Positions 21,115 to 46,892 of a stretch of 64,000 nucleotides of DNA are shown here, one piece after another. The notes under the pieces are model-generated. The model did not search any database. It was not told where the DNA came from and saw only the letters and a program-made list of their open reading frames with translations. Origin of the DNA: Deltaproteobacteria bacterium. GTDB lineage: Bacteria > Desulfobacterota > Binatia > HRBIN30 > CADEER01. The position numbers were made by a program, and so were the translations under genes. Location of the stretch: NCBI GenBank assembly GCA_029262455.1, contig JAJCZJ010000020.1:325078-389077 (forward strand), in the 5' to 3' direction. How positions within the stretch are numbered: position 1 is the stretch's first letter; each line of letters begins with the position of its first letter.

Positions 21115-21939
21115 ATGTTATCTCGGATGAGCCAAGGAGCGACATTCCCAACTCCCCCCCTCTCTGTGGTAATACCGGCCTTCGAGGAGTCCAGTCGCAT
21201 CGGCCCTCCACTCGCAAAAATTTGCCAGTATATTGCACAGAACCACCCGGGCACTGAGATCATCATCGTCGACGACGGCAGTCGCGACAGTACCTCGGAA
21301 ACGGTTGAGAAGCTCGCCCCGGATCTGCCATGCCCGGTCACCCTGTTGCGCTATGAGAAAAATCGCGGCAAGGGCTACGCGCTGCGCGTAGGTTTCGCGC
21401 ACAGCAGCGGGCAGCGCGTCCTGTTTACCGATTGCGATCTTTCGACGCCGATCGAGGAACTCGATCGGCTTCTCCCCGCGATCGAGGATGGCGCCGATGT
21501 GGTGATCGGCTCGCGGAAGATGACCGGTGCCGACATCGTCGTTCATCAAAAATGGTACCGCGAGCGGCTCGGCAAAGTCTTTACGTTTCTCGTCAACATC
21601 GCAATCGCCAACGTCAGCGACGCAACGTGCGGTTTCAAGCTCTTCGACGGTGACGTTGGCCGGAAACTCTTCGCACTCGGTCAAATCGACGACTGGAGTT
21701 TCGACGCCGAAATCCTCTTCCTAGCCAGCCGACAGAACCATCGCATCGTCGAGATTCCCGTAACCTGGCGCGATGCCGAGGGCACAAAAGTCCGCCTTGG
21801 CCGCGACGCGCTCGCGGCCCTGACTGGGCTGATGCGCATTCGATGGCTGGCGCTGCGCGGCGTCTATCGGGAGGCTGCTTCTCCGAGCCTGGACTCCTCC
21901 GTCGAAGTCAAGATGCTGCCTGACCGGCTCATATCGTGA
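21115..21939 (+). CDS. GT2 polyprenol-phosphate glycosyltransferase (DPM1/GtrB/CsbB/ALG5-like)
   Basis: ORF 20929..21939 trimmed to ATG 21115. LSVVIPAFEE, IIIVDDGSRDST, NRGKGYAL, FTDCDLSTP, DAEILFLA. Confidence 0.8.
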   Translation: MLSRMSQGATFPTPPLSVVIPAFEESSRIGPPLAKICQYIAQNHPGTEIIIVDDGSRDSTSETVEKLAPDLPCPVTLLRYEKNRGKGYALRVGFAHSSGQRVLFTDCDLSTPIEELDRLLPAIEDGADVVIGSRKMTGADIVVHQKWYRERLGKVFTFLVNIAIANVSDATCGFKLFDGDVGRKLFALGQIDDWSFDAEILFLASRQNHRIVEIPVTWRDAEGTKVRLGRDALAALTGLMRIRWLALRGVYREAASPSLDSSVEVKMLPDRLIS

Positions 21940-28907: not shown

Positions 28908-29405
28908 GTTTTCGGCGCCGGATTGAAGTGCGAAAACACATAGCGGCCGGAGAGGCAGATGTCAGCGACCGAGGACATCGGGGGTAGTGGGTCACTTTGA
29001 TCCTGAGCTCGGCGCAACCGGAGCGAAGTTGGGAGGGCACGGCACCGCCGAGCCTTTCCGGGGTGGAGTCTTGTCACAGCTACCACCCGCAGGAGCTATG
29101 CGCGGCTCGGCGGCGCCGCGCCCTCCCGGGACCCGGCTGCTCCCGTCCGCTTCGATCAAACCGACCCACCACCGGACATCGAACGCGGTACGCGTATTCT
29201 CCCTCGAAGGCCCGTTCCAAGGCGGCCTCATTCACACCCCGGTCGTAACGCAGCAAGGAGCCGTCTGCATACGCGCGCTGCGCTGTTTCCGGGTCTATGG
29301 AAATGCCACTCCGTTCCGCATTCATTTCCGTCATTTGCAGTTTCCGACACAAACCAATCCGCCCTCTTGCGGAGCCACCCAGGTCGCGCCAGGATCGCAT
29401 CCCTT

Positions 29406-30590
29406 ATGCCGAAAGAAGAGATCGAGGTCGAGGTTCGGGTTCGGCTGCGCGGAGGGCATTCCTACGATCTCACCCTATCATCCAACTCCGCTCTTCTGCG
29501 CGACTTGATCACGACGCTCGGCGGGTCGAGAAACTCGGTCCAGCCCCGACTCTTCCAGCTACCCCTCGACGGCGGCCAAACCTCCGCAACATTCGCCAGC
29601 GATCAGATATCAGCGATCGACACCCGTCCGCCACTCGACTGGAACACCATCACAACTGGTACGGAAGAGCGGTCCGCAAAAAGCCTCGGCGATGGTCCGC
29701 CTCTCGTCCTACGCGGCGCCCGCAACATTACACGCCAGCCATCCTACGAGGCAGCAGAGCGACGAGCGCGGCGGCTGATGGAACCGTTCGTGGCGCATCG
29801 ACAAGCCCGCCGTGCCGCACTGAAGAGCACTTGCGACGAGCTCGGCGGAAACACCTTCGTCGTCTCCCCCTTCAACCAAGGCTTCGTCCCGCTACTGCGC
29901 AACTGGGCCGCATCCTGTGATCGTTCCGGCATCGACTGCCGCGCCAGGACGGTACTGTTTCCGACCGACAACGGCGCCGACACTGCAGCACGCGAGCTCG
30001 GATTCGCAACCCTCTTCGACGGCGTCTCGTTTGACGGTGCCCCGCGCGACGCTATCAAAGTCTACGGGGACGCCCACTTTGCCGATTGTGTCTTCGCCAA
30101 GCTCGGCGCAGCAATCGACATGCTCGCTCTCGGCTACGACATCCTACTCCAGGATATGGATCTCGTCTGGTTCAAAGACCCGCTCCCCGGACTCAAAACT
30201 CGAGCGATGGCCGACGATCTGGACTTACAGTTCATGCGCGACATGAATCCGCGCTTCCAGCCGCTGTACTACAACTCCGGCTTCGTATTTATGCGCAACA
30301 ACGAATTCACCCGCCAAACCTGGAACACCATCTTCGACGCCTTTGCGGCGGTCGTGTTCTACCGCTCCGATCAAACCGTCGTGAACCAGGTCGTCGACTG
30401 CTACAAAGAGCGAGGATTGCGAGCCGCCCGTCTTCCAGATCGCTACGTAGATGGACAACTGCTGATCCGGGCCCAAACAAAACGCCGGCCTCTACCGCCA
30501 GATTCGATCGTGGCTCACGTCAACTGGACCGGAAACCTTGCCGAGAAGATCGCTCGGCTCAAAGCACTCGAACTGTGGTTCATCGACTGA
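29406..30590 (+). CDS. Unassigned N-terminal ~75-aa domain fused to a GT77/PF03407-like nucleotide-diphospho-sugar transferase
   Basis: ORF 29367..30590, ATG 29406. ILLQDMDLVWFKDPLPGL (DxD) and PLYYNSGFVFMRN are typical of Nucleotid_trans/GT77. N-terminus is described in the findings. Confidence 0.65.
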   Translation: MPKEEIEVEVRVRLRGGHSYDLTLSSNSALLRDLITTLGGSRNSVQPRLFQLPLDGGQTSATFASDQISAIDTRPPLDWNTITTGTEERSAKSLGDGPPLVLRGARNITRQPSYEAAERRARRLMEPFVAHRQARRAALKSTCDELGGNTFVVSPFNQGFVPLLRNWAASCDRSGIDCRARTVLFPTDNGADTAARELGFATLFDGVSFDGAPRDAIKVYGDAHFADCVFAKLGAAIDMLALGYDILLQDMDLVWFKDPLPGLKTRAMADDLDLQFMRDMNPRFQPLYYNSGFVFMRNNEFTRQTWNTIFDAFAAVVFYRSDQTVVNQVVDCYKERGLRAARLPDRYVDGQLLIRAQTKRRPLPPDSIVAHVNWTGNLAEKIARLKALELWFID

Positions 30591-30673
30591 TCGATGCAAA
30601 TCACTTGCCGTGTCACAAGTTTTCCCCTTTTAAGCTTGACAGGAAGTCAGCGAACGTCGAGACTGCCTCCCGG

Positions 30674-31942
30674 ATGCCGACATTTGTTGGCGACACCTTA
30701 CCGGAGGCGCTTCGAGCCTTGGACTGCTCAAAATCCATCGAAACTCGTGTCCTGCCGCGCGCAGTGGCCTTCGGTCGCTTGCTTCTCGCTATCGCGGCGG
30801 CACTTGCCGTGGTGACAGCTCCGCATAGGGCGCCGGCAGCCCAGATCAAGTTCACGGGATTTGCCCAAATCAACGGCGCCCCGAGCGGACCGTTCGCAGC
30901 ATTCACAATGAATGAGGTCGTCGATATGACGATCACGATCGACGAGACTACGGCCGATTCGAATGGCGCCGGCGGCGCCGGATCATACAGCGATCCGACC
31001 TCGACCGCATTGTTCGAGGGACAGACCTCCGTGCAGATGGTCACTTTCACCGGCTTCGGCTTCGAACTCCTCGATTCGACGCGACTCGACCCGGCCAACG
31101 GCCTCGTCTCATCGAGCCCGAGCGCGGCGTACGTCGAGGACTGGGACCTGACCAACCTGTCGCCGATTTCGAACGTCGACGACCTTCCGACCATCATTGC
31201 CGAGTTGCCCAATGTGAACATTGGAACCGTCAGCGCCAACTTTTCGATACAACAACTGCCCGCCGGCCCGACCACGCTCTTCCTCGGGCTCAAGCCAACC
31301 GTCACGGTCACCGACTTTTGCGGCAACGGCATCGTCGAGGCCCCGGAAGCGTGTGACGATCCGGTGTGTTGCAACCCGACCTGCACCGCAATCATAGCGA
31401 ACGGAACTGAATGCCGCGCTTCAGCCGGCGTCTGTGATGTGGCCGAGACCTGCAGCAACGGCGCATGCCCCGTCGACGGCTTCGCCTCGATCGGCACCGT
31501 GTGCAACCCGTCATTGGGCGTCTGTGATCCAGAGGAAGTGTGCAGCGGCTCGAGCGCGGAATGCCCGCCGGACACGCTGACTCAGTTCACCTGTGGCACG
31601 ATCTGCGGCGCCCCGGTAGACGAGTGCGACGTTGCCGACATCTGCGTCTCCGGCAACGTCGATTGCCCACCGATGGGGACAATGTGCACACCGACACCGG
31701 TTCCGACTCCGACGCCCACGCCCGTTCCCGAAAATGGGTCCGGGGACGGGGCTTGCAGCGACGGTCTCGACAACGACAACGACAACCTCATCGACTGCGA
31801 CGACCCTGATTGCCTCGACGTCGAGGCATGCGAAACCGTGCACGCACCGACGCTCTCGCCAGGTGGATTGACGATCACCGTGCTCATCCTCGCCCTCATC
31901 GGCTTGTTGGCGATGGGGCGGGCAGTGCTCCGGAAGAACTGA
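30674..31942 (+). CDS. Secreted Cys-rich protein with disintegrin-like motifs, a PT linker, a DxDxD motif and an IPTL-CTERM-like tail
   Basis: Inner part of ORF 30086..31942. Start is ATG 30674 or GTG 30764 (MAFGRLLLAIAAALAVVTA signal). CGNGIVEAPEACDD, three copies of C-x5-CD-x2-E-x-C-x(4,5)-CP-x-D, TPTPVPTPTPTPVP, DGLDNDNDNLIDCDDPDC, APTLSPGGLTITVLILALIGLLAMGRAVLRKN. Confidence 0.7.
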   Translation: MPTFVGDTLPEALRALDCSKSIETRVLPRAVAFGRLLLAIAAALAVVTAPHRAPAAQIKFTGFAQINGAPSGPFAAFTMNEVVDMTITIDETTADSNGAGGAGSYSDPTSTALFEGQTSVQMVTFTGFGFELLDSTRLDPANGLVSSSPSAAYVEDWDLTNLSPISNVDDLPTIIAELPNVNIGTVSANFSIQQLPAGPTTLFLGLKPTVTVTDFCGNGIVEAPEACDDPVCCNPTCTAIIANGTECRASAGVCDVAETCSNGACPVDGFASIGTVCNPSLGVCDPEEVCSGSSAECPPDTLTQFTCGTICGAPVDECDVADICVSGNVDCPPMGTMCTPTPVPTPTPTPVPENGSGDGACSDGLDNDNDNLIDCDDPDCLDVEACETVHAPTLSPGGLTITVLILALIGLLAMGRAVLRKN

Positions 31943-32611: not shown

Positions 32612-33976
32612 ATGTCGTCAGGAAACAGCGTAGAAACGCCGCCTACCAACTCTGGAGACTCCCCACGAGCACGGGGTGCGGCGGCTCGGCGGGTACGTCC
32701 GCGGCAGCGGGGCGGGCTCGAGACTTTCGAAGTACACAACGAAATCGTCGTGCTTCCCGGCGAGGGGGACCGCGTTTACGCGCTGAACGAGTCCGGTAAG
32801 GAGATCTTCGGCCTCTGCGACGGTCGCCACACCCTAGAGGCAATGGTCGACCAACTGGCGTCGAGGTACGACGCGCCTGACGTCGCGATCATGGGCGACG
32901 TGTCCGCAGCGATATTCGACCTCCACGGCCTCGGGCTGGTCGATATTCCTCCACCGGCTGACGCAGCTGCATCGATCGAGCCGCAGACCTCGGTCAAGGC
33001 ACGACCCAACGTGCGTTTCGTCTTCGGCATAGAGGACGTGCCCTATTTCCACTGGCAGCTTGCCATCCTCTTCGAGTCGCTCGTCGGCCAATTGCCCGAC
33101 GGTTGGGACGTCACCGTCGTCGTTTGCAACGACGAAGCACCGATTTCCGACGAGCTCATGAAGATCGTTTCCGAGTACGGTGTTCGCATCATGACCGGCA
33201 CCAGTCTCGCCGATCGCCACAGTCTCGACTTCGCCGGCGGCGGTGATCGCTACGTTCCGATGAACCGAGTCGAAGCACTCAGCGTCATTCGGCAAATCGT
33301 CGAACCCGAAGACGTCGTTTGCCTTCTGGACACCGACGTCTTCCTGTACGGCAACCTTCAAGAACAACTCTTCCCGACCGGCAACGCAATGGCCCGCAAC
33401 TGGATCATCTCCGAAGATCGGTACTTCGCGTTCTCGACCAACAACGAACGAGGACTGTCGCTCCCGAAGCTGCTCGAAGCCCTGGGGTGCGAGCAGGAGT
33501 TCAAACCCGGTGGCGTAGCGGTCTTCTTGACGGGAGAGACGATCCAACGCGAGCGCGTCATCCCCGACATTTTCCGTTTCCTTCAGGTTCTGTTCCTGCT
33601 CGGGAAAATCGTCGACGCACCAGCGCACGGCGTTTGGGTCGCCGAAATGGCATGCTTCGCAATGGCCATGTACCCCAACGAAATCGACTACGAGCTTCTC
33701 GACATCCCGCAATTCGCCGTCCAGGAGCAGCATGCTGAAGTCGCCCCCGACGGTTCGTTCTTCCACTACTACACCGACATCAACGACGGCGGGGGATCAA
33801 ATGGTCCGTTTTTCGAATCGCAGTGGCATAAACAGTTATTTCACCAGTCCAACATGCTCCTCGAAGACTTCGACAGCTTCAGAGTGAACGCCAAAGGCCG
33901 CCTCGAGCAGCGCTTCTTCGAAATCGCCGACAAGGCGAGAAAGCGCCTTTACGGCATCGAACGCACGGGCAAGTAG
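32612..33976 (+). CDS. PqqD-like domain fused to a GT95/GT96-like (HPAT / peptidyl-Ser galactosyltransferase-like) glycosyltransferase
   Basis: PqqD-like VYALNESGKEIFGLCDGRHTLEAMVDQLASRYD...AIFDLHGLGLV. GT part: FVFGIEDVPYFHWQLAILFESL, VVCLLDTDVFLYG, VWVAEMACFAMAMY. Confidence 0.6.
   Translation: MSSGNSVETPPTNSGDSPRARGAAARRVRPRQRGGLETFEVHNEIVVLPGEGDRVYALNESGKEIFGLCDGRHTLEAMVDQLASRYDAPDVAIMGDVSAAIFDLHGLGLVDIPPPADAAASIEPQTSVKARPNVRFVFGIEDVPYFHWQLAILFESLVGQLPDGWDVTVVVCNDEAPISDELMKIVSEYGVRIMTGTSLADRHSLDFAGGGDRYVPMNRVEALSVIRQIVEPEDVVCLLDTDVFLYGNLQEQLFPTGNAMARNWIISEDRYFAFSTNNERGLSLPKLLEALGCEQEFKPGGVAVFLTGETIQRERVIPDIFRFLQVLFLLGKIVDAPAHGVWVAEMACFAMAMYPNEIDYELLDIPQFAVQEQHAEVAPDGSFFHYYTDINDGGGSNGPFFESQWHKQLFHQSNMLLEDFDSFRVNAKGRLEQRFFEIADKARKRLYGIERTGK
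32717..32947 (+). other. PqqD-like (RRE-type) domain, copy 1, N-terminal
   Basis: aa 36-112 of ORF 32612; pattern L.LN..g..IW.LCDG..T..EI...L matches PF05402 by eye. Confidence 0.6.
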
Positions 33977-34640: not shown

Positions 34641-36644
34641 GTGAGACATCTACTCTATACAAACTACCAGTCCGGTCAGTCGGGTTTGAGCAACGGCATC
34701 ATGTCGATCGAGCTGGGCGTGGTCCTCGCGTTCCTGACGAATCGGTTTCTCCTGCTCGATGGCAACATCTCCCCGCCGGCCAATATCGTGTCGTACGGCG
34801 ATCGAGTCGACAACAGCCAGCCGAGCCGCGTCACCGACCTGATCGACCTACCGGTCGCCTGGAGTGAGCCAGGAAGCGTCGACGTGTCCAAGTTGCCGTT
34901 CCTCGAATTGAGCGACGACCATCTGGGGAGTGCCGCGTTCTATGTCCCCGGCACCGTCGACATCCGATCCGCCGACGCGGAAGCGTTCGCCAACGGCAGG
35001 ACAGTGTGGCTCAACGCTGGCGGCTCGCTCGACGAGATCCCGGTGCTGCGAGTGTCCGAGGATCACAGCAAAGACAATCTTCGATACAATCTCAACTACT
35101 ACTCGTACTTCTTCTACCTCGACGACGAAACGCGTCGCTCCGTCTACCGCATGCTCGAGCGGATGCAACCAAAGCAGGACCTAGGGGAGCTGGCGAAGCG
35201 CGTCGCCGGCGATCTCGGAGCATTCAACGCGGTGCACTTGCGACGCGGTGACTTCAAGGTGACCTATGGAGTCACCACCCTCGACCGTCAACCTTGGGAA
35301 GCAATCGAGGCGCTCGAGCATCACTTCAAACGCGACGACACTCTGGTCTTCGTGACCGACGAGCGCGACGACCCGTTCTTCGACGAGATCAAGAAGGTCT
35401 ATACGCATCACGTATTCATCGATCACCACATCCTCGACGACTACGAGAAGGACTTCGCCGCATTGCAGCACCGCGACAGCATCGCCTTGGCCTATCTTTC
35501 CCAGCTCGTGGCGGCCGAATCCGCCGACTTCATTGGCACCATGACCAGCACGTTCACCGCCATCATCCAGCGCTACCGCGGCAATCGCGGCAAGGCCGAG
35601 AGTTTCAAGTACCTTTGGAACGAGCTCCCGGACGACGGCGATCGTCTCGAACGCGGCCGTCATCCGGTTAGTGAGTGCGTCCCGATGGACCGCGGCATGA
35701 TGGTCGAAGAGTCGTCGGGTCCGTACTCATGGAATCGCTACAACAAGAGGATCGCCGCCAACTGGATGCGCGAATGGCCCGAAAGTTTTCTGACCCAAGA
35801 GAGCCTCGAAACCGGCAAATTGACGACCGGGGCCAGCCCCGTTGCCCGCCCCATCGTTCTGGTTCGTCCCGAAAGGACGAAAGTCGAGGTCGCGTTCGAC
35901 GGCTTGAGCATCATTCTAAACTCGCAAGTGCCTCGCGTTGCGACCAAGCTGAGCGAAGCCTTCGAATCACGCCAAGCTGCGAGTCCAGCGAACGTCATCG
36001 GGGAGTTCGAGGTTGCTGAAGAAGACGGCGACTTCCGTCTTCTGCAACGCGGCCAGGAAATCGCCACCGCAGCAAGCTACGAGGAGTTGGCGCGCACGTT
36101 AAAACTCCGCATGGTGCCGATCTTTGTCGGTGCGCGCCGCCGGCACGTGTGGCTGGAAGCTTTTTCCTTCCGTAGAGCAGGCCATGCGCTGGTTCTCGCC
36201 GGCGACATGGGTCCTCCATCGGACTGGCTGCCGGACGCCATGTGCTCGAACGGCTGGGAGCTGCTGTGGGACGAGATCGTCCCGATCCGCCTGGAAGACT
36301 GTACCGTCACACCGTTCGGCCGCACGACCTGGCCGAAGGGCGCAGCCCTGCGCATCGACCGTACGCCCTGTCGCGTCAGCGGCCTGATCGTCACCAGCCG
36401 ACAAGTCCAGCGCCGCGACACCTTGACCGTCTTGTCCCCAGCCACCGGGGTGGCGGAGTTGATCGGCCGCTGCGTCGACTTCCGCACCGACCGCAAGCGG
36501 GCGGTAGAACGCCTGTGCAAGCTGGTCGAGAAACGAACCGTAGGCAGACTGTCCTTCAGCCGCGCCGAGACCGCTGTCGATCTCCTCACGCGCCCCTTCC
36601 TCGACGCGGAGCGTGAGTCCGCCCACGGTACAAAGTCTGCATGA
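34641..36644 (+). CDS. O-fucosyltransferase-like (PF10250-type) GT domain fused to an HprK-related-kinase-like domain with a degenerate P-loop
   Basis: GLSNGIMSIELGVVLAFLTNRFLLL, FNAVHLRRGDF, ADFIGTMTSTFTAIIQRYRG. C-terminal half: VEVAFDGLSIILNS...HVWLEAFSFRRAGHALVLAGDMGPPSDWLPDAMCSNGWELLWDEIVPI. Confidence 0.55.
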   Translation: MRHLLYTNYQSGQSGLSNGIMSIELGVVLAFLTNRFLLLDGNISPPANIVSYGDRVDNSQPSRVTDLIDLPVAWSEPGSVDVSKLPFLELSDDHLGSAAFYVPGTVDIRSADAEAFANGRTVWLNAGGSLDEIPVLRVSEDHSKDNLRYNLNYYSYFFYLDDETRRSVYRMLERMQPKQDLGELAKRVAGDLGAFNAVHLRRGDFKVTYGVTTLDRQPWEAIEALEHHFKRDDTLVFVTDERDDPFFDEIKKVYTHHVFIDHHILDDYEKDFAALQHRDSIALAYLSQLVAAESADFIGTMTSTFTAIIQRYRGNRGKAESFKYLWNELPDDGDRLERGRHPVSECVPMDRGMMVEESSGPYSWNRYNKRIAANWMREWPESFLTQESLETGKLTTGASPVARPIVLVRPERTKVEVAFDGLSIILNSQVPRVATKLSEAFESRQAASPANVIGEFEVAEEDGDFRLLQRGQEIATAASYEELARTLKLRMVPIFVGARRRHVWLEAFSFRRAGHALVLAGDMGPPSDWLPDAMCSNGWELLWDEIVPIRLEDCTVTPFGRTTWPKGAALRIDRTPCRVSGLIVTSRQVQRRDTLTVLSPATGVAELIGRCVDFRTDRKRAVERLCKLVEKRTVGRLSFSRAETAVDLLTRPFLDAERESAHGTKSA

Positions 36645-37630
36645 CAGACCAAGCAACCGCACCGCGCCAGATCGACATCCGCATCTCCACCATCGGCGGG
36701 CACGAGTATCGGTTGAATCTCCGCGAAGACGCCGTCCATTTGCGCGACCTCTTTACTCGATTCGTCAACCGACCGGCGACTGGGGCTGTCCGAGCTCCTG
36801 AATTCATCCAACTGCCCCTCGACGGAGGCAACGCTTCCTGCACGATCGCCGTCGATCAGATTGTGTCGATCGTCACCACGCCACCAGTCGTCATCGAAGT
36901 GCAACAACCCGCCGTCGAGCCAAACGTAATTCCAGATGTGCCGGCAGTGGTCGCGCCACCCCAGATCCGGCGCGCACACTACACGGTGATCGACGACTTT
37001 CTCACCGTCGATGAGCACCGAGACATGCTGGCGTTGGCATTGAGCGAGAAGGACAGCTTCGAACCCGGTACGGTGCAGGGTGAACCGAGTCCACACCGAC
37101 GAAACAGCGTCATCATGAACTTCGCAGACTCGGCGCACGGAACACTGCTGACAAGTCGTCTGCTCGTTTGGTTTCCATTGATCGCAAAGGCGCTGAAGGA
37201 ACCACTGTTTCCGCTCAAGACGGTCGAGTCGCAACTGACCGCCGCCAACGACGGAGACTACTATAAGCCTCACCTCGATACCGACGGGAAGACCCCCGAT
37301 TTCCGGGTCATCGCGTGCGTCTACTATTTCTTCCGCGAGCCAAAAGGGTTCACGGGCGGCGACCTACGCCTCTATGATTCCATCGAAACAGGTGGCGAAA
37401 TCTGTCAGGCGGATTCCTTCCAAGACATTCGGCCGGCAAGCAATCGCTTGGTCGCATTCACCTGCGAGACCTTCCACGAGCTGCTCGCGACTCGCTGCCC
37501 GTCCAAGGATATCGAAGACAGTCGTTTTGCGGTGACCGCGTGGTTTCACCGCAGCGGCGCACCGGACCCCGACGCCAAGTTCGGTTGGGGACATTATCGT
37601 TGCGGCGAAGTTCCGGAGGCACTGCGGTGA
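36641..37630 (+). CDS. Unassigned N-terminal ~80-aa domain fused to a 2OG-Fe(II) oxygenase (PF13640-like)
   Basis: ATGA overlap with the upstream stop. YYKPHLDTDG (HxD), GGDLRLYD, NRLVAFTCETFHEL, RFAVTAWFH. Confidence 0.7.
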   Translation: MTDQATAPRQIDIRISTIGGHEYRLNLREDAVHLRDLFTRFVNRPATGAVRAPEFIQLPLDGGNASCTIAVDQIVSIVTTPPVVIEVQQPAVEPNVIPDVPAVVAPPQIRRAHYTVIDDFLTVDEHRDMLALALSEKDSFEPGTVQGEPSPHRRNSVIMNFADSAHGTLLTSRLLVWFPLIAKALKEPLFPLKTVESQLTAANDGDYYKPHLDTDGKTPDFRVIACVYYFFREPKGFTGGDLRLYDSIETGGEICQADSFQDIRPASNRLVAFTCETFHELLATRCPSKDIEDSRFAVTAWFHRSGAPDPDAKFGWGHYRCGEVPEALR

Positions 37631-37802: not shown

Positions 37803-38930
37803 ATGATCTTCACGGTTTTCGTCGCACCGGTCGAACCAACGCAACAGTGGCGTGCCGATCTCCTCGAATACTCATGGCGACGCATCAAGCAGAGCGGCGA
37901 ACTGATCCGGCTGGCGCCAACCGCCCCCGGACGCGCACCAGGTAGCAGAGGGAGAGTCGGGAGAACCGTCAAAACGTTCGACTGGAACCCCCACCCGTAC
38001 ACCCAGGACGTGTACGCCGGCTATCAGACAACCGCCGGCGTACTCGAGTGGTTGTTCAACGAGCCGGCCGAAGGAACAGTCCTTTTGCTGGATTCGAGCT
38101 GCATCCTACGCCACCCGGTTACAGCAGAGGTCGAACCAGGCCACGTGCGCGGGTCGTCGTGGCCGGAGATCCCACTTGGCACGGACGGCCCATTCGGCCT
38201 GCATGATGATCTGAAGTTTCTCGAATCCTATTGCGTCAACCGCAAGCTCCCCCTCGCTCCCGTGCGGATGCCGATTTTGATCCACACGGCGGACCTGCGA
38301 AAAATCGCGGCGCGCTGGCTCGAGCTTACGGCGTTGATTCGATCCCATGCCGTAGGCGTTCACGGAAAATACCTTCATGCAGATCGCGTCGCCTACACCG
38401 TCGCCGCCGCCGAATACCGCATCCTCCACACCCTTGACGACCTCGGCACTACGACGTCGGATACCGGCAAAGACGTTCCGATCGTCGACTACAGCACACC
38501 GATCAAGTCCAAACAGGGAGAGATCGTCTGGGACCGAAAGGTCTATCGACCATGGGAGGCAGTCTACACCGAAAATGCGCGCGCAGGCGCAGGCAGAGAC
38601 GTACTCGGGATCCTGAACGAGATGGTGACGCGCCGCGAATCGGGAGCCGAGCTTGCGGCAACACGTCCACAGCGGTGCTACGGGGTGCGGGAAGCACGAA
38701 TTCTCGACGACATTCATCTCGAAGTACCTGGGTGTGCCGACTTGATGTCGCTGAATCAATCCGCGGCTGCCATCTGGGAGCTGTGCAACGGCGAGAACAC
38801 ACTCGCCGAGATCGTCAGCGAGCTCGAGAGACAATTCGACGCGTCACGCGAAACCCTCATGACATCCGTCGAATCGACGGCGAGGGATTTGGAAAGCTCA
38901 GGTGCCATCGAGCTGGAGGAGCTGTTCTGA
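37803..38930 (+). CDS. GT95/GT96-like glycosyltransferase fused to a C-terminal PqqD-like domain
   Basis: IFTVFVAPVEPTQQWRADLLEYSWRRIKQSGELIRL, AGVLEWLFNEPAEGTVLLLDSSCILRHPV, ILIHTADLRKIAARWLELT, ADRVAYTVAAAEYRILH. C-terminus: LMSLNQSAAAIWELCNGENTLAEIVSELERQFD. Confidence 0.6.
   Translation: MIFTVFVAPVEPTQQWRADLLEYSWRRIKQSGELIRLAPTAPGRAPGSRGRVGRTVKTFDWNPHPYTQDVYAGYQTTAGVLEWLFNEPAEGTVLLLDSSCILRHPVTAEVEPGHVRGSSWPEIPLGTDGPFGLHDDLKFLESYCVNRKLPLAPVRMPILIHTADLRKIAARWLELTALIRSHAVGVHGKYLHADRVAYTVAAAEYRILHTLDDLGTTTSDTGKDVPIVDYSTPIKSKQGEIVWDRKVYRPWEAVYTENARAGAGRDVLGILNEMVTRRESGAELAATRPQRCYGVREARILDDIHLEVPGCADLMSLNQSAAAIWELCNGENTLAEIVSELERQFDASRETLMTSVESTARDLESSGAIELEELF
38679..38927 (+). other. PqqD-like domain, copy 2, C-terminal
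   Basis: Last ~82 aa of ORF 37803..38930. Confidence 0.6.
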
Positions 38931-40156
38931 TGGCATCCAAAGCAAAACCAAGCGCCAAAAAGTCCGTGCCGACCACAAAAACAAAGCACGCAGCAAAACG
39001 TGCCAAAGCCTCGGCCAAGAAAACAGCCAAAGCGCCGCCCGGAAAAGCCACGACAGCACGGGCGAAGAAGACCACCAAGACTCCGGCCTCCAAGAGCCCC
39101 AAAACCCGGACCCAAAGGACCCGGGCCCAAAAGCCCCGGGCCCGCAAAGCCGCGCTCAAAGTATCGCAAACGGTGTCGCCCAAAGGATCGCAAACGACTT
39201 CGAAGACGGAGCGAACGACCCCATCGCCTCGCGCAAAGTCGCGGCAGGCCACAAAACAACCCCAGATCTTCGTGTCGATCGCCTCCTACCGCGACCAGTT
39301 TCTTCACTTCACCATCGAGTCGGTGCTCAAACAGGCGACGTACCCAGAACGGTTGACCTTCGGCCTCTGCTGGCAAGCCGACGACACCGAGCAACTCGAT
39401 CAATACCTGCACGATCCGCGTTTCCGCATTCGCAAGTACCCGTACTACGCGAGCCTCGGCTACGGTTGGGCAAGAGCCGAGATCCAAAAACTATACGCCG
39501 GCGAAGAGTACCATCTACTGATCGATTCTCACACGTATCTCGCCAAGGGGTGGGACGAGAATCTGATCGCGCAACTCGAGAGCAAGCCGGGCGAGAAGCC
39601 GCTACTGACGACCAGCTCACCCCCTTTCACCTTCGACAATGACGGCAACGTCGTAATCCCGTGGCAAGGGACCGAACACGACGGCGTGCCGCTGATGAAG
39701 TGCGCACGAATCCAACCGGCAGGGTGGGTCGACATCCAGATGTCCAATGAGCGCAAGTCCACCAAACATCAAACCACCGGATTGGTGTGCTGTAACTTTG
39801 TCTTCACGCACGGGGCTTGGATCCGCGAAGTGCCCGAGGATCCGGCGATGATCAACGCCGGCCACGAGTCAGCCCTTTCGGTTCGTACCTTCACCCACGG
39901 ATACGACATCTACCTGCCCGACGAAATTCAAATCTGGCACCTCGACTACAACAACTACCCGAACGGTGAGCGCAACAAGGTATGGGAAGCAAAGTCCGAC
40001 AGTTGGCAGTCTGAGGGCACCGAGATCATGCTGCGGCGGCTGCAAGCGCTGTTCTACAACCGCGGCGACCGCGCCTCGCTCGGCCGCTACGGACTCGGTC
40101 GATCCCGCACCGTAGCCGACTGGGCGGAGATCACCGGACTCGACCTCAGTGACTGA
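38930..40156 (+). CDS. Lys/Ala/Thr/Pro-rich basic N-terminal extension (~111 aa) fused to a GT60 Gnt1-like (PF11397) glycosyltransferase
   Basis: Inner part of ORF 38552..40156. ATGA overlap with the upstream stop, GGAGGAG SD at 38915-38921. MASKAKPSAKKSVPTTKTKHAAKRAKASAKK..., then QIFVSIASYRDQFL, LLIDSHTY. Confidence 0.65.
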   Translation: MASKAKPSAKKSVPTTKTKHAAKRAKASAKKTAKAPPGKATTARAKKTTKTPASKSPKTRTQRTRAQKPRARKAALKVSQTVSPKGSQTTSKTERTTPSPRAKSRQATKQPQIFVSIASYRDQFLHFTIESVLKQATYPERLTFGLCWQADDTEQLDQYLHDPRFRIRKYPYYASLGYGWARAEIQKLYAGEEYHLLIDSHTYLAKGWDENLIAQLESKPGEKPLLTTSSPPFTFDNDGNVVIPWQGTEHDGVPLMKCARIQPAGWVDIQMSNERKSTKHQTTGLVCCNFVFTHGAWIREVPEDPAMINAGHESALSVRTFTHGYDIYLPDEIQIWHLDYNNYPNGERNKVWEAKSDSWQSEGTEIMLRRLQALFYNRGDRASLGRYGLGRSRTVADWAEITGLDLSD

Positions 40157-41942
40157 CGTCGACTCCGCACTACTGCCAATTCCCCAACCCGAGTGGCGTG
40201 CTTCTTTATCCGGCGACGGCGCGGCAGTTGATGTCCTGATTTTAAGCAAGGACCGCGCCTGCCAACTCGACGGACTGCTGCGCACGATGCGCGCGTTCCT
40301 GACCATCCCACACCGGAAATACGTACTGTACAAGACGTCTAATTTGGCGTTCGAGCGCGGCTACGACATGCTCCGCCGGTGGAATCCCGAGGTCGAGTTC
40401 ATCGACGAGGCGCAAACGTTTCGACAATGCTACCTCGACCTCGTGGCAAGGATCGCCGCCGGGCCTGGTCGCTACTGGATGCCGGTGATGGACGACATGA
40501 TCTTCACTCGCACGTTCACCGCACAGCCACTCATCGACCTCCTCGACACAGACGAGGACGTGCTGGCGATCTCTCTGCGCCTCGGCGAGAACATTACCTA
40601 TTGCTACACCCGAAACGCTCCAACCACACCTCCGGACTTCAGCAACGGACACCGTTGGGAATGGAGAACAGCCAGCCCAGGCTACTGGAACTATCCAATG
40701 TCCGTCGACGCCAACATCTACCGCACGGCGGAAATGGCCGAATACATCCCGACCCTCCAATTCGGCAAGGCTGAAGTCATCGAGGCACGCATGGCCGGGG
40801 TGCCCTTGAACCGCCCCCATATGCTGTGTGAACCGACCCCCAGCGTACTCAATCTCGCGATCAACCGCGTTCAACACACCTTCAAGAATCGGCACGGCAC
40901 AATCACGCCAGAAGCCCTGAACGGCGCTTTCCTCGCGGGTTTCGCGATGGATGTGCGCCCGTTGCTGGGTCGAACCTTCAACGCCTGTCACGTCGAGGTC
41001 GAGCTGTCCTTGGTCCCCGATGCGCGCGAGCGCCCCGGCGCAACGCCCCTCTCTTCGACCGGCTGGAAACCACAGCGAAACGGCGCCGTCGTCGTGACCG
41101 AGAGCCATGCTGTCGTGACGCTCAAGAGGAACGGAACGAAGCTCAAACTCAATCAGAGCGCCGAAGAGATCTGGAAACTGTGCGACGGAACACGAACGCC
41201 CGAGGACATCCAAAACGAGCTCGCGCAACATTTTGACGCAACCCCGCGCCAGCTTCACAGCGGCGTACGAAGCGCCCTGGCGAATTTCATCAATCACGGC
41301 CTTCTCCGTCAGGAACGCCCGGAAGGCGCATACCGCCGCATCGACCTGCGCCAGATTCCCTGCTTCGTGATCAATTGCGAAGCCGATGCTGAGAAGGACA
41401 CGTTGATGAAGCGTCAGCTCGCTGAGCTCGGGATACCGTACGAACGTGTACCCGGGATCGCCGCAAGCCCGGATTGGGTCGGCGTCGCGCTGTCGCACCT
41501 CAAAGTGCTTCGCCTGACCCGCTCGACGACACCCTTCCTGGTGCTCGAGGACGATTGCTTGTTCAACGACCGCTTCCAACCAGTGTGGCAAGTACCGGTC
41601 GAGGCCGACGCCCTGTATCTCGGCGTTTCCGAGTTCGGCCTCGAGACCCCCGGTCACTTCAGCTGGGGCCGCCGGCGCAAGAACCAATGGAGACCCTACG
41701 ACCGGTCCTTCCTCCGCATTTTCAACATGCTCGCACGCCATGCGGTCGTGTACCTTTCCAACGACTACTGCGAGCAAGTCATCCAATCGCAAATCGAAGC
41801 ACTGACGAATCGAAGTTTGCCGTACCCTGGGGACATCGGCTGCGCGATGCTGCAAGCATCGCACGTCGTCCTGACCCCGAACGAACCGATCTGCCGGCAA
41901 ACCGGTCGTGACTCGACCGTGCGTCCGTTGCCGGAGCTCTGA
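40149..41942 (+). CDS. Three-domain protein: GT-A-like domain, central PqqD-like domain, GT25-like domain
   Basis: VDVLILSKDRACQLDGLLRTM; central KLKLNQSAEEIWKLCDGTRTPEDIQNELAQHFD; C-terminal IPCFVINCEADAEKDTLMKRQLAELGIPYERVPGI...FLVLEDDC. Confidence 0.6.
   Translation: MTDVDSALLPIPQPEWRASLSGDGAAVDVLILSKDRACQLDGLLRTMRAFLTIPHRKYVLYKTSNLAFERGYDMLRRWNPEVEFIDEAQTFRQCYLDLVARIAAGPGRYWMPVMDDMIFTRTFTAQPLIDLLDTDEDVLAISLRLGENITYCYTRNAPTTPPDFSNGHRWEWRTASPGYWNYPMSVDANIYRTAEMAEYIPTLQFGKAEVIEARMAGVPLNRPHMLCEPTPSVLNLAINRVQHTFKNRHGTITPEALNGAFLAGFAMDVRPLLGRTFNACHVEVELSLVPDARERPGATPLSSTGWKPQRNGAVVVTESHAVVTLKRNGTKLKLNQSAEEIWKLCDGTRTPEDIQNELAQHFDATPRQLHSGVRSALANFINHGLLRQERPEGAYRRIDLRQIPCFVINCEADAEKDTLMKRQLAELGIPYERVPGIAASPDWVGVALSHLKVLRLTRSTTPFLVLEDDCLFNDRFQPVWQVPVEADALYLGVSEFGLETPGHFSWGRRRKNQWRPYDRSFLRIFNMLARHAVVYLSNDYCEQVIQSQIEALTNRSLPYPGDIGCAMLQASHVVLTPNEPICRQTGRDSTVRPLPEL
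41079..41315 (+). other. PqqD-like domain, copy 3, internal
   Basis: aa 311-389 of ORF 40149..41942. Confidence 0.6.
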
Positions 41943-41977: not shown

Positions 41978-44900
41978 GTGAAAAAGGGCACAATCCACGA
42001 TCTCTTCTCCCGCACCGCTTGCGTCGTGTCCGACAGGCACCGATTCATCTATTTGACGGCGCAAAACGCCACGTCTTCCCTGAAGGCCGAGCTGTCGAAC
42101 GAGCACTGCGGCGGCGTTGTCCTCGCCCGCGCACAGGTGGCTGATAAACTCTGGAACCAATACTTTACGTTCGCCTTCCTGCGCGACCCGCTGACGCGCT
42201 TTCTCTCCGCCTATCAGGAAGTGTCTCTGCACATGGAGCGTGACAAACTCGAACCGCGCCCTTTCGGCCGGATGCCCGACGGCCTCGATCGCTTTCAGGC
42301 ATTTCTCGCGGACGTCGAGCAGAACGGTCCGTGGAACGAGCACATTGCACTCCAGCTAGCCTTCGTCGAGCGCCGAAGAATCGACTTTTGGGGGCTCGTC
42401 GAAACGCTGCAAGACGACTTCCAACAAATCTACACCCGGCTGGGATTGGGGACCTGTCCCGTTCTGCCAAAACGCCGCTCTCGCAGCGGCCGTGAGGAAA
42501 AGGACGGCATCTCGCGCTTCGCCTTCCATCCGGAGGACCTCGATGCGACGACAATTGAGCGCATCTACGACCTCTACCGTGAGGACGTCTTGCTGATTCG
42601 AGCGGTTCGCCCCGACGCACCTGAAATGCAGCCGCACTCAACCCGTGCCGCACCGCCCCCCGGAATGGTGCAGGTGGCGATCGCCCTGGCCAACGGCGGC
42701 GAATACTCCCTCGAACTTCCGCCCGGCCAACCAGAGCTGGGCGCTCTGCAAGCTGTGGTATCACCACAACAATCCGATGGACGTTTTCTCGGCCCGCAAG
42801 TTCTGCAGGTTCCACTGCGTGGTGGCAATTCCGCGCTGACGTTTTCCACGCAGCACCTCGTTCGTCTCGAGCTACGCCCCCCCGACGCCCGAGAACTGCG
42901 CCGAATCGAGGCGCCGGCCACCGGCACGGGCAACTCCGGAGTGAATCTAATAAACGTCGGGAACAAGCGGCCGCCAACCGAGGACCCATCGAGCAATATC
43001 GACGAGGCGCATCTCGGTGGCTACATTCGTGCGGCCAATACACCGATTCTCCACAGCGCCGCAGGCCCACACGGGGACCGGGGAACCTGGAATCCGCTGC
43101 TGTGGCGTTGGGCAATCGAAGATCTCGACGTGCGATCAGTGATCGATATCGGATGCGGCGAGGGACACGCCGCCGGATTTTTCTCCGACGGCGGGTGTGA
43201 AGTGCTCGCGCTCGATGGCAGCCTTCAAGCGCGCTATTCCAGCGTTGTTCCAGATCGCCACGTCGTACACGACTTCGTCGAGGGACCTTTCGTCCCAGAG
43301 AAAAGCTTCGACATGGCCTGGACCTGCGAGTTCGTCGAACACGTCGAGGCGCGTTTTCTCCACAATTTCCTGGCTACGATCGCATCGAGCCGCAAGTACG
43401 TGATGATGACGTTCGCCAGCCCGACACAAACAGGCTGGCATCACGTCAATTGCCAAGAACAGGGTTACTGGGTCGATCAGTTGGGACGCCTCGGGTTTCG
43501 CCTGGACGACGATCTAACCGAGAGAGGCCGAGCCTTGGCTCACTCTCATTTTCGCGAACGTGGCCTGGTCTTCGTCCGGCACCATCGAAAAGGCGAGTCA
43601 TCGAAGTCCACAGAACCGTCGCTGCGCGCGACTGCCGAGAGTCACTGTCTCGACCCGCTGCCGGTCCAATCCATGCAGGTCGCACAGCGCGAGAGCGATG
43701 CCTTCTACCTGTTTGTCGACATCTTCGTGCATCCGACCGCACCGAGAATCGTGGCGATCTCACCACCCTATGGCGAAGACTGGAATCCTAACGTTGTCGG
43801 CATCGACTACGATGCCGTCGACCTTGTATTCGGTGACATACGCGTCCGCGGCCGCTGCCTGCGGCACCGTCTCGACTCCTGGGAGCCTTGCATGCTTCTC
43901 GAGTTCGAGGACGAAGACCTAACAGAGCGCATTCGGGCCAACGACGAGATCAACGTCACGATCGAGGCCGGCTCGCATTCGTCGTCCTTCGTCCTGACGA
44001 CCCGCCCAGCGCCAGCCTACGATGTCGCAATGAGCCTCGTCGTACGCAACGAAAACCGCTGGATCCGCACGTTTCTCGACTACTACCTCGACTGCGTCAA
44101 AGCCGACCACGTCTTCATCTACGACAACGGAACGTCGGAACAAGACCAGCTGCTTTCCATTCTTCACCCGTACCGAGAGCGCGGGCAAGTGACGTACATC
44201 CCGTGGGATTTTCGCTGGCGCAACCGCATCGACCGCAAGATGATCGGCCAACCGACACAGGAGGCTCACTCCCTTGCAAGATTCGCAAACACCGGGTGGA
44301 TCGGCTTTCTCGACATCGACGAGTTCCTGCGCTTGCCGCACAGCACCCTGCCACAATTTCTCGCTCGCTTCGCGTCCGCGGAGGTCGACGGACTCTCGTT
44401 CGGTATCCGGTGGTTTTCTTACGAGGGCCCGCTTGCACTCGATGAGATTACGAGTGTGCCACTGCAATTCCTCCACTCGCGCCGCAATGAGCTCGGCCGA
44501 AAACGGCAGAAGTTCTTCGTCAAAGGCGGCGGCTCGAAGTTTCTTCGCTTGCATTGGCTCGAAGACGGAGGTCGCGAACTGCCCATCGACGACACCGAGA
44601 TCTACTTTCACCACTACGATCAACGTCCCGGCCGTTTCGAAGAAGGAAAGCAAATCGGAGGAGCGCGCGACGAATACATGCTGCGCTTCGCCGACCAGCT
44701 CTCGCGCCCCGAGCGGCACAGAGCCCCTCTAACCGAGAGAGGATGGATCACCCACATCAACTCTTCGATCGAACGCGCCGAACGCGACACCTCCAAACTC
44801 ACCCCGGAAGTCCTCGCCGTCGACGGCATGTGCGGGCGCTACACCCGTCACTTCTACAACAACCTCTGCAGCTTCGGAGGATGCCGCTACCTCGAGATCG

Positions 44901-45385
44901 GCAGCTATCACGGGGCCAGCACCTGCGCGGCAATCTTCGGCAACGACGTATCCGCCGTGTGCATCGACAATTGGACACAGTTTCACGGCAAGCGAAGCCG
45001 CTTCGAGGATGCCCTACGACGCTTCCGAGGAGATCGCTCGGTCCGAGTCATCGAGCAAAACTGCTTCGAAGTAGACGCCTCAAGCCTCGGCCCATTCGAC
45101 ATCTATCTCTACGATGGCGACCACAGCCAGCAGAACCAGTACCGAGCCTTGCAGCACTTCGTTCAGACGCTGGCCAAGCTCGCCGTAGTCGTCATCGACG
45201 ACTGGAATCGTCGGCATATCCGTCGGGGGACACAGGACGCGATTCGGGACCTCGAACTCGATGTAATCTTCGACCGAGAGATCCTACTGCCAACCGACCA
45301 GACGGCGGATGAAAACCGTGACGCTGGAGCGCGAACTTGGTGGAACGGACTCTACATCATGCTCGTTCGCAGTAGAACGCAGTAG
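41978..45385 (+). CDS. 1135-aa five-module enzyme: sulfotransferase, shared ~75-aa domain, class I SAM-MTase, GT92/Glyco_tranf_2_4-like, second SAM-MTase (Methyltransf_24-like)
   Basis: FTFAFLRDPLTRFLSAY; MVQVAIALANGGEYSLELPP...LQVPLRGGNSALTF; VIDIGCGEGHAAGF; SLVVRNENRWIRTFLDYYL...FIYDNGTS...FLDIDEFL; YLEIGSYHGAST...IYLYDGDHS...VVIDDWN. GTG start has a weak SD. Confidence 0.65.
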   Translation: MKKGTIHDLFSRTACVVSDRHRFIYLTAQNATSSLKAELSNEHCGGVVLARAQVADKLWNQYFTFAFLRDPLTRFLSAYQEVSLHMERDKLEPRPFGRMPDGLDRFQAFLADVEQNGPWNEHIALQLAFVERRRIDFWGLVETLQDDFQQIYTRLGLGTCPVLPKRRSRSGREEKDGISRFAFHPEDLDATTIERIYDLYREDVLLIRAVRPDAPEMQPHSTRAAPPPGMVQVAIALANGGEYSLELPPGQPELGALQAVVSPQQSDGRFLGPQVLQVPLRGGNSALTFSTQHLVRLELRPPDARELRRIEAPATGTGNSGVNLINVGNKRPPTEDPSSNIDEAHLGGYIRAANTPILHSAAGPHGDRGTWNPLLWRWAIEDLDVRSVIDIGCGEGHAAGFFSDGGCEVLALDGSLQARYSSVVPDRHVVHDFVEGPFVPEKSFDMAWTCEFVEHVEARFLHNFLATIASSRKYVMMTFASPTQTGWHHVNCQEQGYWVDQLGRLGFRLDDDLTERGRALAHSHFRERGLVFVRHHRKGESSKSTEPSLRATAESHCLDPLPVQSMQVAQRESDAFYLFVDIFVHPTAPRIVAISPPYGEDWNPNVVGIDYDAVDLVFGDIRVRGRCLRHRLDSWEPCMLLEFEDEDLTERIRANDEINVTIEAGSHSSSFVLTTRPAPAYDVAMSLVVRNENRWIRTFLDYYLDCVKADHVFIYDNGTSEQDQLLSILHPYRERGQVTYIPWDFRWRNRIDRKMIGQPTQEAHSLARFANTGWIGFLDIDEFLRLPHSTLPQFLARFASAEVDGLSFGIRWFSYEGPLALDEITSVPLQFLHSRRNELGRKRQKFFVKGGGSKFLRLHWLEDGGRELPIDDTEIYFHHYDQRPGRFEEGKQIGGARDEYMLRFADQLSRPERHRAPLTERGWITHINSSIERAERDTSKLTPEVLAVDGMCGRYTRHFYNNLCSFGGCRYLEIGSYHGASTCAAIFGNDVSAVCIDNWTQFHGKRSRFEDALRRFRGDRSVRVIEQNCFEVDASSLGPFDIYLYDGDHSQQNQYRALQHFVQTLAKLAVVVIDDWNRRHIRRGTQDAIRDLELDVIFDREILLPTDQTADENRDAGARTWWNGLYIMLVRSRTQ

Positions 45386-46759: not shown

Positions 46760-46878
46760 GTGATTGGTGACTGGTGATTCGTGACTGGTGACTGGTGATT
46801 CGTGACTGGTGACTGGTGATTCGTGACTGGTGACTGGTGATTCGTGACTGGTGACTGGTGACTGGTGACTGGTGATTG
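46760..46878. repeat. 17 tandem heptamers GTGAYTS, with a 21-bp super-repeat GTGACTGGTGACTGGTGATTC
   Basis: Counted by hand from the sequence: 119 bp = 17 x 7, lying between the GT60-like stop (46893) and the sulfotransferase ATG (46744). Confidence 0.9.
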
Positions 46879-46892
46879 GTTGGGCAAAAGTT

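Follow-up and report, generated by a model that had tools for sequence, protein, structure and literature searches.

In a 64-kb window of bacterial DNA (the whole stretch that was analysed, 64,000 nucleotides of contig JAJCZJ010000020.1), an open reading frame (ORF) at positions 38930–40156 of the plus strand encodes a 408-aa glycosyltransferase of family GT60, designated GT60a here, which carries a 111-residue polycationic N-terminal tail that none of its listed orthologs has. The source organism is uncultured and is represented by a metagenome-assembled genome (MAG). What is new here is a lineage-specific, polycationic region of predicted disorder on a known enzyme family, together with the conserved gene cluster in which GT60a is embedded, and of the two the cluster is the more notable result.

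Both the ORF list and direct translation show that residues 1–111 of GT60a contain 24 Lys, 20 Ala, 19 Thr, 12 Ser, 11 Pro and 10 Arg, with a single Glu and no Asp (K 22%, A 18%, P 10%, R 9%, T+S 28%, D+E 1%), which gives a net charge of +33 and a pI of 12.0. The other 297 residues are acidic (pI 5.4, net charge −11). Translation and composition of this Lys-rich, acid-poor N-terminus are as given in the original prediction, made from the DNA letters before any database search. Its likening of the tail to histone H1, however, holds for composition only: the tail contains no S/T-P-x-K/R motif and has no detectable homolog. Throughout the six reading frames of the window no other Lys-rich, acid-poor stretch was seen, and the tail DNA is also the T minimum of the window (2.7–5% in 150-nt windows, the next lowest value elsewhere being 6.7%). 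In the AlphaFold2 (AF2) model of GT60a, residues 1–97 have a predicted local distance difference test score (pLDDT) below 50, corresponding to predicted disorder. One P-T dipeptide occurs in the tail (VPTT), the remaining prolines standing in T/S-P contexts.

The start at ATG 38930, which had been chosen in the original prediction, is the best-supported one. It follows a Shine-Dalgarno-like motif (Table 1) and shares one base with the TGA stop codon of the upstream gene (38928–38930; TGATG). Start codons were compared across seven orthologous loci (L002, L003, L004, L005, L007, L008 and L010), and in all seven the ATG of the GT60a ortholog overlaps or abuts the upstream stop (TAATG, TGATG, ATGA or TAAATG), the spacing between the two ranging from a 4-nt overlap to no gap. 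The distance from this ATG to the IF[VI]S motif is 9–10 codons in each of the seven loci and 112 codons in the window. Because the overlapping ATG has been kept and yet 112 rather than 9–10 codons precede the motif, the tail represents an in-frame insertion of ~102 codons. As read from the compared sequences, the insertion lies in a short N-terminal segment of variable sequence, immediately after the retained Met-Ala; this site is permissive, since the 8–12 residues before IFVSIAS vary among GT60a orthologs. The closest genomic relative, locus L002 from a Candidatus Binatia MAG, has the same gene order and a catalytic domain 82% identical to that of GT60a, and its junction between upstream stop and GT60 start reads 'gtttaATGGCAgtt', compared with 'ttctgATGGCAtcc' in the window. 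No Shine-Dalgarno-like motif precedes the alternative in-frame starts GTG 38966, GTG 39173 and GTG 39272. Initiation at GTG 39272 would delete conserved residues I113 and F114, both invariant in the alignment, and initiation at GTG 39173, the latest plausible start, would still leave a basic extension of 30 aa. Judged on this genomic evidence, the full tail is very probably translated.

Short repeats within the tail (Table 1) are weak and are compatible with growth by local duplication. Separately, a 22-nt imperfect direct repeat (38959–38980 and 39235–39256; 77% identity, 276 nt apart) flanks most of the tail, and could be either a chance occurrence in A/C-rich sequence or a trace of the insertion's origin.

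Homologs were compared for the presence of the tail, as the original prediction had proposed, using the 120 best listed homologs of GT60a (60–83% identity, almost all 300–310 aa long), whose lineages include Binatia, Halieaceae, Lysobacterales, Nitrotoga, Acidobacteriota, Polyangia and others. Among these the tail is present in the window protein only, which forms a singleton cluster. A search of 5.8 billion proteins with the tail alone returned no homolog at E ≤ 0.01, and a scan of JGI metagenome contigs with the tail peptide found no relative. The tail DNA shares six 12-mers with the rest of the window, at four scattered positions or clusters; these are probably chance matches, with the donor sequence absent from the window. 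A number of candidate tailed homologs were rejected: the apparent N-terminal extension at L006 is merely a frame that stays open ahead of an internal Met, the ~25 extra residues of P0044 and P0049 are not Lys-rich, and P0011 and P0118 are longer through domain fusions. Within the 150 most similar family representatives, one other protein with a K-rich N-tail was recognised, P0224 of Polynucleobacter paneuropaeus (MBT8543380.1). Its domain is 33% identical to that of GT60a and is directly preceded, at IFVQIASYRD, by a K/V/A-rich tail of ~80 residues that is unrelated to the GT60a tail; its locus (L011, 10001–11467; JAANFK010000001.1) has a methyltransferase/epimerase/TPR context without PqqD genes. 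Given that the two tails are unrelated, Lys-rich tails have arisen at least twice in the GT60 family.

The catalytic part of GT60a matches PF11397 (GlcNAc/GT60) with 153 bits (E = 1.9e-44; curated cutoff 21 bits), in agreement with the family assignment made earlier from the sequence. The match consists of two stretches, the best of which spans profile positions 92–350 of 352. An exhaustive HMMER search with GT60a recovered 3473 representative relatives, and nearly all alignments began at about query residue 100–113, which places the tail outside the GT60 family proper. Residues D199-S200-H201 and W336-H337 are invariant in an alignment of 28 sequences, and the AF2 model built on that alignment has pLDDT values of 80–98 for most of the catalytic core. 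As a sequence search of the PDB with GT60a gave no meaningful match, a fold search was carried out on the AF2 model. The top PDB matches in Foldseek were all mucin-type polypeptide GalNAc-transferases (GalNAc-T2, PGANT9 and Toxoplasma GalNAc-T3; E ~1e-9, TM ~0.47), followed by K4CP, GlfT2 and TarP. By profile and predicted fold, GT60a is thus a GT60 member (GT-A, DxH, related to GT27). Characterised GT60 enzymes are polypeptide alpha-GlcNAc-transferases with hydroxyproline (Hyp) or Thr as acceptors; either residue would suit as the putative acceptor of GT60a, whose context comprises a prolyl 4-hydroxylase (P4H)-like oxygenase as well as a PT-repeat precursor. Elsewhere in the family, GT60 domains are fused to PqqD-like (P0213), sulfotransferase plus methyltransferase (P0118) and unknown N-terminal (P0011) domains; in the same set, which also takes in P0121–P0133, proteins of 1000–2400 aa contain as many as four GT60 domains in tandem.

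Table 1. Coordinates of GT60a, its tail and associated features in the 64-kb window
Feature	Position	Strand	Evidence
Shine-Dalgarno-like GGAGGAG (38915–38921), 8-nt spacer, ATG (38930–38932)	38915–38932	+	Sequence
Tail-coding part of GT60a (111-aa polycationic, predicted-disordered N-terminus)	38930–39262	+	Translation, composition, T depletion, pLDDT, no counterpart in orthologs
15-nt unit × 3.3 (39096–39143) and 20-nt direct repeat (39153/39177), inside tail	39096–39196	+	Repeat search
GT60a catalytic domain, PF11397; starts at QIFVSIASYRD; invariant D199-S200-H201 (DxH), W336-H337	39263–40156	+	Pfam, alignment, AF2, Foldseek
Gene with stop overlapping the GT60a start: HPAT-type N-domain and C-terminal PqqD	37803–38930	+	PqqD E = 1.9e-13; orthologs pass PF23452
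2OG-Fe(II) oxygenase, prolyl-4-hydroxylase type, with ~75-aa N-terminal module	36641–37630	+	PF13640 E = 4e-15
Enzyme with central PqqD domain and weak GT25-like C-terminal part	40149–41942	+	Pfam; kept downstream of GT60a in L002, L009, L010
Third PqqD-domain protein, 408 aa as called on Logan contig	32750–33976	+	Profile scan, tblastn
Large conserved protein, weak O-fucosyltransferase-like and weak HprK-related-kinase-like regions	34641–36644	+	Both below curated cutoffs
Multi-domain tailoring enzyme: sulfotransferase, methyltransferase, GT92/GT2-like, second methyltransferase	41978–45385	+	Pfam, tblastn
GT77-type nucleotide-diphospho-sugar transferase, PF03407, with ~75-aa N-terminal module	29367–30590	+	Pfam, BLASTP
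Candidate substrate/precursor, 159 aa	45413–45892	−	Homologs beside PqqD gene, alignment, PT repeat in one homolog
GT60b, tail-less old paralog, GTG start, 335 aa	46893–47900	−	ORF list, Pfam, tblastn

Conservation of the surrounding genes was assessed by tblastn of the window proteins against nine related loci, which revealed a cluster kept across phyla. Its usual order begins with GT60b, a small protein, a PqqD-domain protein, a 205-aa protein and the large O-fucosyltransferase (O-FucT)-like protein, and continues with the 2-oxoglutarate (2OG) oxygenase, the PqqD-domain protein directly upstream of GT60a, GT60a itself and the PqqD/GT25-like protein. The sulfotransferase-methyltransferase-GT92-methyltransferase protein follows; after it come two genes in opposite orientation, for an 876-aa protein and an MBOAT protein, and lastly an epimerase. 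Cross-phylum identity is 60–83% for GT60a compared with 34–68% for the surrounding genes; to judge from the sequences, GT60a alone seems to be under unusually strong constraint.

The overlap between the stop of the gene at 37803–38930 and the start of GT60a suggests translational coupling of the two. The orthologous group of this upstream gene matches PF23452, hydroxyproline O-arabinosyltransferase (HPAT): orthologs P0295 and P0287 score 25.4 and 27.2 bits, respectively, above the cutoff of 23.9, and a precomputed match is present in ~25 of 120 homologs, whereas the window copy itself reaches 12 bits, below that cutoff. The P4H-type oxygenase gene is located two genes upstream of GT60a. Its product has a single PDB sequence match, 6t8m (E = 4e-5), a prolyl 4-hydroxylase by annotation. 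This code is cited in a paper on the PhyA crystal structure (PMC7864055), PhyA being the prolyl hydroxylase that acts on Skp1 in Dictyostelium. Taken together, the oxygenase match and the HPAT match of the upstream orthologous group strengthen the lead towards the Skp1 pathway that the original prediction had raised.

PF05402 (PqqD) matches were found in the products of three cluster genes (37803–38930, 40149–41942 and 32612–33976; E values of 1e-11 to 1e-14), while GT60a itself has no PqqD domain or RiPP recognition element (RRE). A further shared element is a module of ~75 aa, encoded on the plus strand at 36641–36900 (2OG oxygenase), 29367–29650 (GT77) and 42629–42900 (interior of the sulfotransferase/methyltransferase/GT92 protein). 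The copies are related by BLASTP (E = 7e-18 and 2e-10) and have the consensus ..GGxxYxLxL....LxxL......P...QLPLDGGN.S.TF....I..I...PP; the module may serve as a docking domain of another type than PqqD. The cluster encodes at least two sulfotransferase domains, and most of its other predicted soluble enzymes have a net charge of −5 to −27. A scan of ten cluster proteins against NCBIfam gave no system-specific family, but sub-threshold PqqD and HprK-related matches only. For the large protein at 34641–36644, PF10250 reached 25.5 bits against a cutoff of 31.5, and TIGR04352 (HprK-related kinase A) matched near the C-terminus with E = 1e-6, far below its cutoff. Upstream of the cluster lie three tandem genes for large YfhO-like (PF09586) membrane proteins (16733–18856, 18846–21008 and 21936–24116, plus strand). 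YfhO proteins are extracytoplasmic glycosyltransferases, and these three may add sugars after export. The ORF at 30086–31942 (plus strand) has a sub-threshold disintegrin-domain match (32.8 bits vs 35.1) and overlaps the GT77 ORF by ~500 nt, so that one of the two starts must be wrong.

A small PT-repeat protein, encoded on the minus strand of the window, is likely the precursor or substrate of the cluster, as suggested by its gene neighbourhood and sequence architecture. A homolog immediately precedes the first PqqD gene at each of five loci (L004, 3553–4050; L005, ~3330–3872; L007, 3608–3979; L008, ~3420–3935; L010, 3335–3859). Alignment of six precursors revealed an N-terminal helix with invariant K9, L12, E15 and R20 (consensus KTKxELLAEIxALRxxL), and an invariant Arg-Arg followed by W-V-x-P-V-I-L-x-x-P, often with A-x-A thereafter; in the window precursor the twin-arginine motif and hydrophobic segment read SRRSALKIAWVTPVILSVP. 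Since no Tat-signal model in Pfam matched any of the six precursors, twin-arginine translocation is deduced here from the motif only. The core consists of Pro/Thr repeats such as PTGAPTGAPT or MPTNMPTNMPT, with x-P-T as the repeated motif, and in one homolog it is recognised as a PF04886 PT repeat (E = 6e-9). Two types of C-terminus occur, one ending in IPVEISEFDIS and the other formed by a hydrophobic segment with a charged tail; the window precursor has a hydrophobic segment and then an acidic end.

GT60b, the paralog with which the original prediction had contrasted GT60a, is indeed tail-less, but it is the wrong comparator; the ~120 orthologs of GT60a are the informative comparison. It lies on the minus strand and is an old, separately conserved member of the cluster. 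GT60b matches PF11397 with 150 bits (E = 1.1e-43) and is 64–70% identical to its own orthologs compared with 35–38% to GT60a. This low identity, together with the fact that GT60b is the ortholog of a second cluster GT60 subfamily in other phyla, shows that it is not a recent duplicate. Between the GT60b stop and the probable ATG (MAHFF...) of a minus-strand sulfotransferase, a (GTGACTG) × 17 tandem repeat was identified at 46760–46880, with a 21-nt super-period × 5.8 and 96% matches, which reads as SPVTSHE repeats if an upstream GTG start at 46900 is used. This repeat could act as a slipped-strand switch; alternatively, it could be another low-complexity N-extension specific to the lineage, the second in the cluster.

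GT60a belongs to a conserved, horizontally spread operon. The gene content of this operon, namely a P4H-like oxygenase, an HPAT-like-PqqD fusion, two GT60s, a GT77, a GT25-like-PqqD enzyme and sulfo- and methyltransferases, would fit the hydroxylation, glycosylation, sulfation and methylation of a Pro/Thr-repeat precursor before export, and GT60a, as a predicted cytoplasmic GT-A glycosyltransferase, would be responsible for one of these steps. The most economical reading of the genes would have leader-guided hydroxylation and glycosylation in the cytoplasm come first, sulfation or methylation second, and export last. In one lineage, the ~102 codons inserted in frame would have provided GT60a with a translated, disordered tail of charge +33. 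The tail is dispensable for catalysis, given that all listed orthologs lack it. The tail is predicted to act as a non-specific electrostatic tether or scaffold on a polyanion, a function to which we assign slightly less than an even chance. Candidate surfaces would be the sulfated, partly modified precursor, acidic partner enzymes, nucleic acid, polyphosphate, or the leaflet of the inner membrane at which a precursor targeted to the membrane would be located; the effect would be a higher local concentration or processivity of the otherwise acidic GT60a. Polyanion binding, which the original prediction had put forward, is physically plausible when a disordered region of charge +33 is joined to an acidic enzyme (tail +33 vs catalytic domain −11), and a sulfated, anionic intermediate is to be expected from the sulfotransferase domains of the cluster. 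Two bacterial Lys-rich tails offer precedents: that of HBHA binds heparin and sulfated glycans (PMC3293801), and that of AlgP is associated with polyphosphate granules (PMC9239181).

Several observations weigh against a translated, functional tail, and they are given here with the alternatives they favour. It is improbable that the tail is untranslated, the true start being GTG 39173 or a non-canonical one and positions 38930–39170 an A/C-rich, weakly structured spacer. T is so depleted that all three forward frames are open over the tail, with the maximal ORF reaching back to 38552 within the upstream gene, and an open frame alone is therefore no evidence of translation. The RNA, at ~2 standard deviations less structured than other 333-nt segments, is leader-like, and the synonymous-codon score of the tail is higher in frame +2 (+0.25) than in frame 1 (+0.05). 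Such a difference can arise because C occupies 54% of second codon positions, as in Ala, Thr, Pro and Ser codons, and frame +2 was rejected as a reading of the tail, being out of frame through the conserved catalytic domain; codon statistics are uninformative on the frame of the tail and lend no positive support to frame 1. On the other hand, ATG 38930 retains the overlap seen in the orthologous loci and has the sole Shine-Dalgarno-like motif, the alternative GTG codons either leave part of the basic extension or remove invariant residues, and a spacer of 240–330 nt would be unlike every orthologous locus. Pattern scans found no plus-strand promoter or terminator pattern in the tail segment, and an Rfam scan found no RNA there. 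Minus-strand 'terminators' at the tail reflect the T-richness of that strand, and the minus-strand ORFs 38756–39487 and 38857–39252 over the tail were dismissed as antisense artefacts that are Phe/Leu/Gly-rich and overlap conserved genes. An assembly or sequencing artefact, in the form of a chimeric join or a frame-creating indel, is very improbable, despite the extreme composition and metagenome-assembled source of the segment: Logan contig L001, assembled independently from reads SRR15505514 with a different pipeline, is identical to the window over 9781 nt including the whole gene, which makes such an artefact unlikely, and both flanks are collinear with the orthologous loci. Somewhat less probable than an untranslated tail is a role as in-cis acceptor or pseudo-substrate (the original prediction had considered the tail as a possible substrate), whereby the tail's own Thr, Ser and Pro would be hydroxylated or glycosylated for auto-regulation or as a second product. 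The 19 Thr, 12 Ser and 11 Pro of the tail are in its favour, as is the action of GT60 and its structural neighbours in GT27 on disordered Pro/Thr-rich polypeptides. This suggestion is nevertheless unlikely, given a dedicated precursor with x-P-T repeats in the cluster, the single P-T of the tail, its lack of the precursor's leader helix and twin-arginine segment, and orthologs that do without any such tail.

The main rival, unlikely in our estimation yet well ahead of the foregoing three, is a translated but functionless low-complexity insertion, arisen by slippage or local duplication of an A/C-rich seed in a permissive N-terminus and tolerated since. It accommodates the confinement of the tail to a single lineage, the failure of protein and metagenome searches to find anything related, the short internal repeats and the variable residues before IFVSIAS. 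It also accommodates the atypical synonymous composition: T at third codon positions (T3) makes up 4% in the tail compared with 15% in reference genes of the window, and AAA is preferred over AAG, opposite to the window's other genes. This composition points to nucleotide-level bias or a non-equilibrated insertion, not to long protein selection. One further K-rich tail in ~150 representatives may also be no more than a background rate, and with no ortholog carrying the tail, purifying selection on it is not measurable. Moreover, the L009 and L010 clusters encode sulfotransferase domains and yet have a GT60a without a tail, from which it follows that the pathway does not require one. A charge co-variation with the precursor was considered and rejected: the precursors of the window and of L005 both end acidic, but the GT60a of L005 has no basic tail. 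What speaks against a useless insertion is that a +33 appendix on an acidic cytoplasmic enzyme probably binds nucleic acids and would be costly, that neither the reading frame nor the stop/start overlap has been lost, and that a second GT60 has independently gained a K-rich N-tail.

Combining the cluster with the electrostatic tether yields a broader, decidedly tentative reading. It envisages an undescribed, widely transferred bacterial system in which a ribosomally made precursor would receive proline hydroxyls and O-linked sugars while still in the cytoplasm, would then undergo sulfation and methylation, and would be exported as a glycoprotein of the extensin or mucin type, with the tail as a newly evolved scaffold on an anionic intermediate or acidic partners. 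Three parts would make up the precursor, namely a leader helix read by PqqD/RRE domains and the ~75-aa module, a segment for twin-arginine export, and a core of Pro-Thr repeats; the enzymes behind the glycosylation would be bacterial relatives of eukaryotic P4H, GT60, HPAT/GT95 and GT77; and the tail would be a disordered functional analogue of the GT27 lectin domain. No description of such a cluster was found in the searchable literature. The cluster joins relatives of four eukaryotic Hyp-glycosylation families (P4H/PhyA, GT60/Gnt1, HPAT/GT95 and GT77) with RiPP-type recognition and a PT-repeat precursor and, if this reading is true, would represent a bacterial route to Hyp- or Thr-linked glycoproteins and a candidate for the origin of the eukaryotic enzymes in evolution. 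The tail, for its part, constitutes a natural experiment, a single gain of a +33 disordered region at a defined site with ~120 tail-less relatives as controls, and the role of such a region on a cytoplasmic enzyme is directly testable by comparing tail-less and tailed forms.

Comparison with characterised GT60 enzymes, which comprise Dictyostelium and Toxoplasma Gnt1 acting on Hyp of Skp1 and trypanosomatid enzymes acting on Thr, shows PF11397, the predicted GT-A fold, the DxH motif and a nearby P4H-type oxygenase as common features. GT60a differs in being bacterial and operon-encoded, in having a PT-repeat precursor rather than Skp1 as its likely acceptor, and in having partner enzymes with PqqD/RRE domains; in addition, no characterised GT60 enzyme is known to carry a 111-aa polycationic tail. 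The resemblance to the Skp1 pathway (PhyA-Gnt1-PgtA-AgtA) is one of enzyme families and not of substrate, and membership of that pathway is not claimed. GT27 enzymes, the best structural match, share the DxH metal motif with GT60a at a sequence identity of 12–16%. They act on disordered Pro/Thr/Ser-rich polypeptides, and their appended lectin domain binds substrate that is already modified; to bind substrate as an appendage is also what is proposed here for the tail. However, the GT27 appendage is a folded C-terminal lectin domain, whereas that of GT60a is a disordered N-terminal polycation and no lectin domain is present.

Like the tails of AlgP (Pseudomonas) and HBHA (Mycobacterium), the GT60a tail is long, acid-free but for its single Glu, Lys/Ala-rich and disordered; further Lys-rich tails of this kind are those of PhaM and the C-tail of mycobacterial HupB. 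Unlike the tails of AlgP and HBHA, to which it shows no homology, the GT60a tail contains no KKAA or PAKK repeat units, has an atypical T+S content (28%) and is attached to a glycosyltransferase, not to a nucleoid, granule or adhesin protein. The cluster as a whole resembles pathways for ribosomally synthesised and post-translationally modified peptides (RiPPs) in that three of its enzymes have PqqD domains (RRE fold) and its precursor has a conserved N-terminus ahead of a variable core, and the PqqD-GT60 fusion found elsewhere (P0213) parallels RRE-guided systems. However, the presumed product is a glycoprotein of 120–180 aa with a twin-arginine/hydrophobic segment, not a small peptide. Finally, members or relatives of all three components of the plant hydroxyproline-rich glycoprotein machinery (P4H, HPAT/GT95 and GT77) are encoded here beside a Pro-rich repeat protein, in a setting that would be the bacterial cytoplasm instead of the Golgi, and with the HPAT assignment drawn from orthologs only.

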